From Patescibacteria group bacterium (GTDB lineage: Bacteria > Patescibacteriota > Patescibacteriia > UBA2591 > JAQUPP01), in the NCBI GenBank assembly GCA_041649955.1, contig JBAZMD010000002.1, positions 7,709-71,708 of the forward strand: a stretch of 64,000 nucleotides of DNA. The letters are read 5' to 3'. How positions within the stretch are numbered: position 1 is the stretch's first letter; each line of letters begins with the position of its first letter. A program made the position numbers. This document shows positions 9,001-12,000 of this stretch, one piece after another.

Positions 9001-12000
9001 AAACATCTTTAGCTTCTTGCCAAGCTAGGAAAAGTCCTCTGACGCCGGTAAGGATGACGTTCTCTGAATGCAGGAAAGCCAGACAATTTTCCGAGATTAT
9101 GCCTTCCATAACCTGGAAAAATTTGACTTTAAATTTCTCCCCGGGTACAAGTCTCCTTGTCGTTCGAAAGTGTTCATCAGTGACATCCGGATGATAGGAA
9201 TTGAATTCAGAGTAATGTTCTTTCTTGAAGGTGGCCAAGCAAATGTCAGGATTGTATTCTACCGGCACAACCAGATTATCAATAACCTTGATTAGATTGA
9301 AGCGCGGATCTACTTTGACAGACATTTTTTTATCCATCGTTTCCTCCATAATACCGAAATTTAAGTCGTTGACTTTATGCCACAACTTTTTCGGCATTGA
9401 TATTATCTTAAACAAACTTTGGGAGTTTTGTCAATCCTTATATATTCTTTAAAATAATCTCCGCGATTTTGGAAGCGGCATCCGGCTTGGCTAATTTGGA
9501 AATATTTAAACTCAAAACAGAACGTTCACTAACGGAAAAAATCAATTGATGAATTTTCTCTGATAAAATTTTGGGAGTGATATTTTTTTGATTCATTAAA
9601 ACAATTGCTTTTTGCTCTGCAAAATATTGAGCGTTAATTTCTTGATGGGAATCCGGCATTGGAATTATAATCGCCGGCTTACCTAAGATTGACAATTCAG
9701 TTAAAAATCCCATTCCGGCTCGGCTGATAACCAAATCGGCAATCGTTAAAGCGTCCGGCATTGCTTCGTTTAAAAATTCATATTGATGATAATGAGTTAG
9801 AGTTTGTGCAGCTTGTATTTTACTTTTTCCTGTTATGTGAATTATTTGACAAAATTTAACTAATTCAGGAATAATTTCACTGATTAACTTATTGATATTT
9901 TGAGCGCCTGTGCCTCCGCCAACGACTAATAATGTCGGTAAATTATTTTCCAAATTAAATCTTTTAATCGCTCTTTCTTGGGAATAATTTTTAATATCCG
10001 GACGAACCGGATTGCCGGTTAAAATGGTTTTTTCTTTTGGAAAATCATTTAACGATTTTTCCAAGCTGACCGTAATAATTTTGGTAAAAGGAGCCATCAA
10101 TTTATTGGCTAAACCCGGAATAACATCTTGCTGATGAATAAAAATCGGTATTCTAAAAAACCAGCCCGCCCAAACCAAAGGTACGGCGACAAATCCCCCG
10201 GCCGAAACAATGGCTTTTGGCTTATATTTTAAAATTAAAAAAACAGATTGTAAAAAACCTGCAATAATTAAAAATGGAGAAACAAAATTTTGCCAGCAAA
10301 AATAACGGCTCAATTTACCGGAAAAAATCGGTTGATAAGGAATATTATATGATTGAGCCAATTCGCGCTCGGGAATTCCTTTTTTTGTGCCAATAAATAA
10401 AAACTTTGTTTCCGTCCGCCGGCTGGCGGATTGTTTTTCCAGCCCAAGGCTGGTCAGCCTCTGGCTGATAATTTCTTGGCTGATAGCTAAAAGCGGACTT
10501 ACCGAACCGCCCGTACCACCGCCGCTTAAAAATATTCTCATACCAGACAGTATACTATTTTTAGAAAAATTGTCCAAAAAAAATTAGCGCCCGTTTCAAC
10601 AACGAACGCTAAACTTTTTTTCATATTTATTTTTTTCTCCAAAACAACATTCCTCTCTTTCTTCCAGCTTTTACTAATATAATCCGCCACTTATGGAGGT
10701 AGCGGTTCATAGGATCTATAAGCTTTGTTTCTTCTACTTTGTATCCAAGACTTAGGAACGTACCCTGAGACTTCTCAATATTCTTAAATCCTATAACATT
10801 GAGAATTATTCTCTCTTCCATTTTAAATCACCTCCTGATTAATTGACAAATTTTTACTATTTTGGTATTAATTAACTGATTTAATATTAGCATAAAAATT
10901 CAAAAATGTCAAGCCCTGTTTTAAAAATTAATCTCAAAGATAAAAACTATCCCAAATTGCTGAAAGAAATTTATGACCCGCCGCAGAACCTGTACGCCGT
11001 CGGAGAAATCAAGGCGGAAGAAAATTATCCCTTGGCAATTGTCGGAACACGAAAAGTTTCAAGCTATGGCAAGCAAATTACCGTTTCTTTGACCAAAGAT
11101 TTGGTTAAAGCCGGATTAACGATTGTCAGCGGTTTAGCTTTGGGCGTGGACGGATTGGCGCATCAAACAACTCTTGATAACGGCGGCCGAACGATCGCCG
11201 TTTTGGGTTCAAGTCCTGATATTATTTATCCGCCGCTTCATAGAACTTTGGCAAAAAATATTATTAAAAATAACGGAGCAATAGTTTCGGAATATCCGCC
11301 AACCACCTCTCCGACCAGATGGACTTTTCCTGCCAGAAACAGAATTATTGCCGGACTTTCATTGGGAACCTTGGTTATAGAAGCGCCGGAAAAATCCGGA
11401 GCTTTGATTACCGCGCATTCAGCTTTGGATCAAGGACGAGAAGTTTTCGCCGTGCCCGGCAGCATTTACAATCCTAATTCAGCCGGCTGCAATCAACTGA
11501 TTAAAATGGGCGCGAAAGCGGTTACCAAGGCCGAAGATATTTTAGACGCTTTTAATTTGGAATTGTCGGAAAAAATTTCCGAAACACCCGAACCGACCTT
11601 GCCGGAAGAAAAAATATTGTGGAAATTTTTAAGCCACGAGCCCGTACATATTGACCAATTAATTAAATCAAGTAAATTTAGCACCAGTCAGGCCATTGCT
11701 GTCTTGACATTAATGGAAATAAACGGCAAAGTAAAAAACCTGGGAGGCGGAAATTATGTCAAAAACTAAAAATCAAAAAAAATTAATCATTGTCGAGTCG
11801 CCGACAAAATCAAAAACCATTTCTCATTTTTTGGGAGATGAATTTTTAATTGAATCTTCTTACGGCCACATTCGCAATCTTCCAAAAAGCAATAAAAAGG
11901 CCATTGATATTAAAGCTGGATTTATTCCTCATTATGAAATCACCAAAGGGAAAGAAGATGTTGTTTCTAAAATTAAAAGTCTCGCTAAAAACGCAAGTGA

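Follow-up and report, generated by a model that had tools for sequence, protein, structure and literature searches.

Can hairpins as short as 15 nucleotides (nt) enter housekeeping genes of a bacterium in frame, and are they there as passengers or as signals? The question is raised by murG in a 64,000-nt stretch of DNA from a Patescibacteria group bacterium (contig JBAZMD010000002.1, positions 7,709 to 71,708; hereafter the window), for which a preliminary description had noted three consecutive GC-rich palindromes within the coding sequence and an identical 16-mer at an intergenic site. The contig is AT-rich (window GC 34.9%), and its gene content, including murG, secDF, topA and dnaK, is bacterial and not organellar; window proteins match entries from metagenome-assembled genomes labelled Patescibacteria. 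On balance, we consider that the murG triplet is probably a recent lineage-specific insertion derived from widespread miniature GC-rich palindromic elements, a selfish or neutral passenger and not a regulator of murG.

The hairpin triplet within murG

The MurG protein encoded in the window is identical to database protein P0001 (367 amino acids, aa). As previously described, three perfect hairpins occupy the plus strand between positions 10415 and 10468 of its gene, all with 6-bp stems: TCCGCC-GGCT-GGCGGA, in which the dominant stem of the family characterized below encloses a 4-nt loop, and then, after 8 nt, the directly abutting CCAGCC-CAA-GGCTGG (10439-10453) and TCAGCC-TCT-GGCTGA (10454-10468). 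The middle palindrome had been given as CAGCC-CAA-GGCTG; it is present, but its stem is one pair longer. The 16-mer TCCGCCGGCTGGCGGA has exactly two copies in the window, at 10415 and 27680, compared with a shuffled-sequence expectation of 0.08 matches even with 3 mismatches allowed. The window contains 27 GC-rich hairpins whose stems reach 6 bp or more, versus 7.2 ± 2.8 in 300 Markov-1 simulations, and clusters of three within 60 nt, found in the window only in murG and pgk, arose in 0 of the 300. The murG sense RNA is predicted to fold as three hairpins (-30.5 kcal/mol, z = -3.47), and 0 of 200 shuffled sequences were as stable.

Comparison with relatives identifies the segment as a lineage-specific insertion. 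It is absent from 25 of 25 aligned MurG orthologues, three of which are about 90% identical to the window protein, and outgroup MurGs at 54–69% identity lack it as well. The closest proteins (P0002–P0004, 90–92% identity in the alignment) have KKHNP or KKKNP in place of the 19 residues ISQRLTSLGLEKQSASRRT; the extra in-frame loop reported earlier is therefore real, with a net length of 14 aa (42 nt) instead of about 18 aa. In the DNA of relatives L001, L003 and L004, MAFFT and BLAST both assign the window an excess of 28 nt and 14 nt, the 28-nt gap being set at the 30-nt double-hairpin module, which is absent from L001–L004. Between the two gaps, the 12-nt A-rich stretch GAAAAACAATCC agrees with the ancestral Lys-Lys-x-Asn-Pro codons in 10 of its 12 positions, but the window reads it in another frame (EKQS). 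To judge from these alignments, the insert may represent either two frame-compensating events or one 54-nt replacement. In the indel comparison with relatives, the inserted blocks are 68–86% GC. The independent ENA assembly L252 is 100% identical to the window over positions 1-12067, murG insert included. We are highly confident that the murG triplet was formed by hairpin-family members inserted recently.

Alignment to MurG structure 7d1i leaves a 14-residue gap after the first helix, and the AlphaFold2 model (mean pLDDT 89.7) shows a helix at 11-31, coil at 32-45 and a strand at 46-52, with a mean pLDDT of 65 for block 31-40. The insert is thus predicted to lengthen helix alpha1 and to add a low-confidence loop before strand beta2; this position after the G-loop helix agrees with the earlier placement between the conserved G-loop and the first beta-strand region. 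The longer loop most likely has no catalytic role. The MurG loop also varies in other lineages, with 30 additional aa in P0006 and small inserts in P0043 and P0012. The P0006 gene, from a relative that is 65–68% identical, carries a different 90-nt (30-aa) GC-rich insert (L005 575-690) built of other hairpins, namely CTCCGC-TCC-GCGGAG and TCCGCTCG...CGAGCGGA. Since a different hairpin insert occupies the same MurG loop there, this loop appears to be a recurrent landing or tolerance site.

Between secF and a GT4 glycosyltransferase gene, non-coding DNA holds the second exact copy of the 16-mer, as the preliminary description had it; its orientation relative to transcription is the same as in murG. 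It is contained in a 183-nt insertion specific to the window; the spacer measures 18 nt in relatives L128 and L129. Because the relatives lack both the murG segment and the 183-nt insert, both copies of the 16-mer reside in lineage-specific DNA: the 16-mer is not unique, and the murG segment is not conserved among relatives. A 22–25-nt direct duplication, made up of the secF end and the original spacer, flanks the insertion, which has no terminal inverted repeat. It was considered as a repeated element and rejected, as no second copy of it beyond the 16-mer was found among the loci gathered here or in viral contigs. A promoter or terminator role for the intergenic 16-mer was likewise rejected on a consensus scan, which found neither. 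Rfam assigned no family to the spacer (one chance-level match, E = 0.66), only three tRNAs reached gathering scores across the window, and no overall excess of structure was detected across the 183-nt insert (z = -1.32). Upstream of the GT4 homologue in a 78%-identical relative (L007 1-109), octamers of the GTACCCAA type, arranged in tandem, form a long palindrome in place of the 16-mer.

A family of hairpin units in AT-rich genomes

We surveyed every indel of 6 nt or more separating the window from L001–L004 (85–96% identical DNA) and found further GC-rich hairpin indels besides that in murG. The hrcA genes of L001 and L004 carry an exact 30-nt insert, TCGGCC-CAA-GGCCGA plus TCCGCC-TCG-GGCGGA, which is common to one NCBI and one ENA assembly and is lacking in the window and L003. 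One loop of topA has received four different inserts: 48 nt in L001, 33 nt in L003, in L036, which is more distant, the hairpin TCCGCC-TCT-GGCGGA, and in L161 a CCAGCC/TCAGCC double hairpin; none is present in the window. The L161 insert is read as TSQRLVSLGLK, which nearly matches ISQRLTSLGLE of the window MurG. A single sample, ERZ27247363, holds both L252 (murG filled, hrcA empty) and L004 (murG empty, hrcA filled). Hairpin units are therefore gained or lost between genomes that are 85–96% identical in DNA. An apparent example in ParB (L093) was discarded as too ambiguous to be called an insertion.

The size of the family was assessed in metagenomes with the pattern WWW-YCNGCC-NNN-GGCNGR-YCNGCC-NNN-GGCNGR-WWW, which fixes four of the six stem pairs in each unit and leaves two free. 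The scan returned at least 120 loci, with 122 matches listed. Both units are perfectly complementary in 110 of these 122, versus about 1.6% (0.125 per unit, squared) if the free positions were random. Among these listed perfect pairs, TCCGCC is by far the commonest stem (153), followed by TCAGCC (31), CCAGCC (17), CCCGCC (9), TCGGCC (7) and TCTGCC (3); every stem of the murG triplet and of the hrcA insert is one of the first five. The 30-nt murG module shares stems, unit size and pairing with the 110 perfect double hairpins. The listed loci, whose median GC is 0.395, contain 291 units in 746 kb; hardly any hairpins there combine a 3-nt loop with a different GC-rich hexamer stem. In a viral collection the same pattern gave four matches only, all perfect family members on AT-rich contigs.

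Most members are intragenic: 75 of the 110 listed perfect double hairpins sit in open reading frames (ORFs) of at least 150 aa. Pfam confirmed six hosts in which the insert falls within the domain (KsgA, an IscS-like protein, UvrC, MnmA, MiaB and RNase R), so that in-frame insertions are now documented in the unrelated genes murG, hrcA, topA, ksgA, miaB, uvrC, mnmA, an iscS-like gene and the RNase R gene. The earlier proposal of a GC-rich repeat family entering coding sequence in frame thus holds on a far larger scale than the window suggested. One 7.7-kb metagenome contig (L215) carries 11 units at 2281-6381 across several genes. Judged from sequence, their hosts there include a CDC48-like double AAA ATPase and GvpL/F-like and Hsp20-like proteins; these protein types suggest that the contig is possibly archaeal (DPANN?), in which case the family would cross domains. 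We found no description of the family in the full-text literature, searches with typical peptide and DNA words included; most subscription journals were outside reach, and a prior description is possible. The family is large and, apparently, previously undescribed.

Each basic unit forms a 15-nt hairpin, YCNGCC-NNN-GGCNGR, whose 3-nt loop is closed by a 6-bp stem; this stem is almost always TCCGCC, TCAGCC, CCAGCC, TCGGCC or CCCGCC and is free of stop codons in all frames. Units usually occur as abutting pairs of 30 nt, or 10 codons; a minor variant is 16 nt long and has a loop of 4 nt (AGCT, AGCC or GGCT). The first loop of a pair is mostly NNA and the second mostly TNN, so that a full 36-mer, TTT-TCCGCC-nnA-GGCGGA/TCCGCC-Tnn-GGCGGA-AAA, is a near-perfect palindrome; paired units are near-inverted copies of each other, with exactly complementary loops in 13 of 110 pairs. 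On both strands the left flank is (T/A)TT and the right flank AAA or AAT, the order AAA...TTT never being seen. As empty alleles already hold these flanks (both in murG, the A-run in hrcA), the flanks represent target sequence and are not part of the insert. Across codon phases 0, 1 and 2, available WTT/AAW sites in ORFs are distributed 50:0:50, and inserts 54:8:13, the rare phase 1 being that of the murG pair. The bias favours the SAxGGSAxGGK reading over Arg/Trp-rich and Pro/Asp-rich readings and looks like a filter acting at the protein level.

An exact scan for the 16-mer in species-representative genomes yielded at least 120 loci, with 124 matches listed. Of the listed matches, about 55 are in loci whose GC does not exceed 0.50, and many of these come from Patescibacteria, among them L062, which shares its assembly with L003; the matches in high-GC genomes could be due to chance. 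Since a single 6-bp-stem hairpin is expected to recur to some extent by convergence across 185,000 genomes, it is the intragenic copies that carry weight. One such copy lies in the topA Zn-ribbon of another Patescibacteria genome (CPEC-NPPAG-GGEIVERRGRFG vs CPKC-E-GEIVERRGRFG in the window), and others, with hosts judged by conserved motifs, are in GatA, an RluD-like protein, MiaA, DnaX, KsgA and an RtcB-like protein. Some genomes contain several copies, the loop is inverted between identical flanks in L016 versus L028, the loop variants AGCT, AGCC and GGCT are all present in other genomes, and the perfect palindrome TCCGCCAGCTGGCGGA also occurs among genomes carrying 16-mer variants.

Several 16-mer matches have a context of their own. 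In several low-GC genomes outside the Patescibacteria (loci L012, L018, L029, L047, L084, L088, L101, L103 and L125), a longer nested palindrome is built around the 16-mer, with outer arms like GTCATTCC...GGAATGAC and the loop in either orientation. Matches in Bacteroidota (L045, L054, L094, L099 and L023) adjoin tRNA genes or tRNA-like 5' halves, and in a Patescibacteria tRNA-Leu(CAA) (L061 2539-2627) the long variable arm is the exact 16-mer. A tRNA origin of the 16-mer was rejected, as the window's own tRNA-Leu(CAA) (16252-16335) has a different variable arm; the L061 arm was treated as a coincidence or a secondary insertion.

Passenger, signal or replication product

We consider it probable, as stated above, that the murG triplet is an inserted passenger. 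Under this reading, units would enter T-rich/A-rich junctions of AT-rich DNA and spread by a copy-and-insert process, copied from pre-existing units by a chemistry that probably depends on the hairpin. Within genes they would persist only where their length keeps the frame (15, 30 or 42 nt), where no stop codon arises and where the Ser/Ala/Gly/Arg-rich peptide falls in a tolerant surface loop; in MurG the insert would be neutral.

Several observations weigh against a purely selfish element. Loops vary between copies while stems are constant, and simple copy-paste would copy the loop too. In the sole orthologous pair, L155/L170, changes affect 0 of 24 stem positions, 4 of 6 loop positions and 15% of the flanks, which suggests either constraint or homogenisation of the stems and hence a possible function. 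Units with a single mismatch show a sense-strand G.T pair in 12 cases versus A.C in 5, a difference that is not significant and gives a weak hint of selection at the RNA level. Pfam detected no Y1/RAYT-type transposase among 20 small or unassigned ORFs of the window, the other ORFs and the rest of the genome being outside that scan; the hits comprised Gp49, a LAGLIDADG ORF, NUDIX proteins and others. Comparison of filled with empty alleles revealed no target-site duplication at the murG and hrcA sites. Copy number in this genome is low, with one pair and two 16-mers in about 79 kb, and the counts from both collection scans are lower bounds that give no per-genome frequency. Variable loops, the L155/L170 pair, the mismatch ratio and the negative transposase scan of those 20 ORFs keep two rivals in play, a functional signal and a template switch.

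According to the first of these, the hairpins are selected nucleic-acid signals, serving as mRNA-stabilising or pausing structures, antisense terminators or protein-binding DNA sites, and the protein loop is a side effect. The conserved L155/L170 stems with their diverged loops and flanks, the excess of sense-strand G.U-type mismatches and the stability of the triplet fold relative to shuffles all fit this account. So do the two plus-strand murG hairpins, whose T-rich tails give a terminator-like score on the strand antisense to murG only, no sense-strand hairpin being directly followed by a T-run. A hairpin with the same stem at 17721-17736 is an apparent terminator as well; it has orthologues in L003 (3050) and L001 (1061), looks like an ordinary bidirectional terminator and not an insert, and is likely the native context of the TCCGCC stem. 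We nevertheless judge a signal role unlikely, given that unit positions are unrelated, fall in many genes and differ between near-identical genomes, that flanks of T then A on both strands are the inverse of an intrinsic terminator, that no gene in the window reads into murG on the plus strand, that the mismatch bias lacks significance and that the strong codon-phase bias points to a protein-level filter. Nor does the anatomy support the REP-like or transcript-end role once proposed: TTT/AAA flanks on both strands, no GTAG or CGTC head and a mostly intragenic location.

Local synthesis by template switching or snap-back during replication or repair, with no pre-existing element involved, would yield perfect stems without selection. 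At murG, there is a 9-nt direct repeat, TATCAGCCA, with the ancestral A-I-S-Q codons 16 nt upstream of the first inserted arm TCAGCC, and the ancestral target of the 16-mer already contained TCCGGA; the near-inverted pairing of units and their occasionally complementary loops fit as well. Such an origin is nonetheless quite improbable in our estimation, because more than 100 unrelated loci share the same five stems and do not contain them in their flanks, the exact 16-mer is found at a second locus in this genome and inside genes of other genomes, and the empty hrcA alleles of the window and L003 hold no seed for either stem at the insertion point. Ordinary loop expansion in this lineage, or loss of an ancestral loop elsewhere, with 16-mer and hairpins coincidental, could appeal to the variability of the MurG loop in P0006, P0043 and P0012. 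It is very improbable, being contradicted by the shuffle and simulation statistics, by the absence of the segment at about 90% identity and in the outgroups, by the P0006 insert itself consisting of GC hairpins, and by the metagenome family. Least credible is a sequencing or assembly artefact such as chimeric palindromic reads: amplified libraries can yield palindromes and all data are metagenome assemblies, yet the murG insert is identical in an independent ENA assembly, the hrcA insert appears in both NCBI and ENA assemblies, and inserts from many projects keep frame, show codon-phase bias and have specific flanks.

A broader proposition, which we put forward tentatively, is that these units constitute the smallest known mobile or self-propagating class: 15-nt hairpins, usually in 30-nt pairs, that have settled in the coding sequence of essential genes of ultra-small prokaryotes from groundwater (Patescibacteria, possibly also DPANN archaea), are either propagated through an as yet undescribed mechanism that depends on the hairpin or kept for an RNA or DNA structural role, and supply SAxGG-type protein loops. 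Should the insertion reading hold, the Patescibacteria, usually called streamlined, would be under continuing invasion even in murG, topA, dnaE, ksgA and miaB, and this would account for numerous short "low-complexity" protein loops rich in Ser/Ala/Gly or Arg. The units would also provide presence/absence markers for strain-level population genetics and warn annotators and structure predictors of non-homologous loop insertions. Mechanistically, the question raised is what places a 15-nt hairpin at T/A junctions without target duplication.

Neighbouring features and known systems

The coordinates of the murG insert, the second 16-mer copy and the same-stem terminator-like hairpin are collected in Table 1.

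Table 1 Positions of the hairpin-related features within the window.
Feature	Position	Strand	Remarks
murG coding sequence, host gene of the insert	9438-10541	minus	367 aa from the ATG at 10541, stop included; TIGR01133, 4.5e-73
16-nt hairpin	10415-10430	minus	Coding strand TCCGCC-AGCC-GGCGGA, read as SASRR; net 14-nt insertion into ancestral ...AATCCGGAA...
A-rich spacer between hairpin modules	10431-10438	minus	Inside the 12-nt stretch GAAAAACAATCC (coding strand); from alignments with L001, L003 and L004
30-nt double-hairpin module	10439-10468	minus	Abutting 15-nt units 10454-10468 and 10439-10453; coding strand TCAGCC-AGA-GGCTGA plus CCAGCC-TTG-GGCTGG, read as (I)SQRLTSLGL
Hairpin with the family stem	17721-17736		TCCGCC-AAAA-GGCGGA; A-run and T-run flanks; between convergent genes
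Right flanking direct repeat of the 183-nt insertion	27656-27677	minus	AAATAATTAAATAATTTTGGTA; keeps the native sequence directly upstream of the GT4 start
183-nt window-specific insertion	27657-27839	minus	Between secF (stop 27858) and GT4 (ATG 27656); 16-mer at the GT4-proximal end
Second exact copy of the 16-mer	27680-27695	minus	Minus-strand reading TCCGCCAGCCGGCGGA; 23 nt ahead of the GT4 start codon
Left flanking direct repeat of the 183-nt insertion	27839-27863	minus	AAATAATTTTTAAAGAATTTTGGTA; end of secF plus original spacer

Other hairpin families are also present in the window. The pgk gene (44018-45328, minus strand) contains an in-frame GC-rich double hairpin with 7-bp stems at 45064-45105, CCCCGAC-gccaatag-GTCGGGG plus CTCCGAC-cgaagc-GTCGGAG, which encodes the peptide STPTPIGRGSDRSVGE, belongs to a stem family different from that of the murG units and falls within an insert of about 22 aa relative to Thermotoga PGK 1vpe. 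The stem CTCCGAC/GTCGGAG is repeated at 4045-4062 in the grpE-dnaK spacer, where it is kept in L003 and L004. AT-richer palindromic repeats with CACTGAC/GTCAGTG words occur at 44109-44163, 5910-5964, 6462-6516 and 46859-46896; the pgk copy forms an insert of about 18 aa just before the conserved STGGGA motif, and the others lie in a Mur ligase ORF (5501-7009) and in the ORF 45920-48211. At positions corresponding to window grpE (4365-4397) and topA (12367-12376), L001 and L003 have in-frame inserts that contain sequence resembling TTCGACAAGCTCAGGGCAAG, read as FDKLRAS. This sequence, which L001 has in both its grpE and its topA insert, appears to represent a further family of short GC-rich repeats.

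Between tRNA-Leu (16252-16335), which it directly follows, and two tRNA-Met genes downstream, there is a LAGLIDADG-type ORF (16355-16939; PF14528, 6.6e-08), and L001 and L003 carry several small free-standing GIY-YIG ORFs between housekeeping genes at positions where the window has none. Beside the dnaK operon, a Gp49-like gene (913-1290; PF05973) and a downstream helix-turn-helix ORF (L252 10778-11453) form a pair that looks like a toxin-antitoxin module.

Intrinsic terminators consist of an A-run, a hairpin and a T-run downstream of genes. They share with the family a GC-rich stem-loop in AT-rich DNA, and the TCCGCC/GGCGGA stem is common to the hairpin at 17721-17736, but in family units T-rich sequence precedes the hairpin and A-rich sequence follows it on either strand, and the units are located within genes. 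DNA uptake sequences occur at about one copy per kb genome-wide, a density far above that recorded here. Uptake-sequence-like words were considered and dismissed, since GC-rich hexamers are all 2–4-fold over the Markov-1 expectation, reflecting codon usage, and none stands out.

REP, BIME and REPIN elements, which are mobilised by RAYT transposases, likewise are small GC-rich palindromes, often inverted doublets, and form stem-loops in DNA and RNA. REPs measure 20–40 bp and are extragenic, high in copy number and headed by GTAG or CGTC (PMC3733652), whereas the units described here are 15–16 nt long with perfect 6-bp stems, are mostly intragenic and begin with YCNGCC in place of such a head. 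MITEs, or miniature inverted-repeat transposable elements, carry terminal inverted repeats of 4–30 bp and short target duplications and are typically AT-rich and intergenic (PMC10969869). The hairpin units resemble them as small non-autonomous insertions, and the flanking direct repeats of the 183-nt secF-GT4 insert recall a young MITE; in contrast, the units lack separate terminal repeats and target duplication, and the 183-nt insert lacks a terminal inverted repeat and a second copy.

The closest parallels lie in mitochondria and Rickettsia. Mitochondrial hairpin elements differ in presence and absence between close relatives, as the units do here. These GC clusters, double-hairpin and repetitive hairpin-forming elements of yeast, Allomyces and sponge mitochondrial DNA are short GC-rich hairpins in AT-rich genomes, are thought to be mobile, are mostly intergenic but also found in protein and rRNA genes, and have no known adaptive function (PMC2800124). 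Likeness extends to the GC-rich single and double hairpins and to the 35% GC background of the window; the mitochondrial elements are, however, organellar, whereas the units reported here belong to free-living or episymbiotic bacteria, are smaller, more uniform and mostly intragenic, and show a clear codon-phase bias. Rickettsia palindromic elements (RPEs) are palindromic repeats of a reduced AT-rich genome, inserted in frame in unrelated housekeeping genes and encoding peptides compatible with function; they measure about 100–150 bp, form ten sequence families each with a conserved peptide, and are confined to Rickettsia (PMC10969869). The hairpin units share the in-frame placement in unrelated housekeeping genes of a reduced AT-rich genome, but are 15–16 nt long (30 nt as a pair), GC-rich and variable in their loops, and are spread across Patescibacteria and other AT-rich metagenome contigs. 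If our reading is correct, they would be a bacterial counterpart to both systems, and the analogy suggests that AT-rich reduced genomes may repeatedly gain GC-rich hairpin parasites. Because size, sequence and host differ, the units fall outside the RPE and mitochondrial GC cluster classes.

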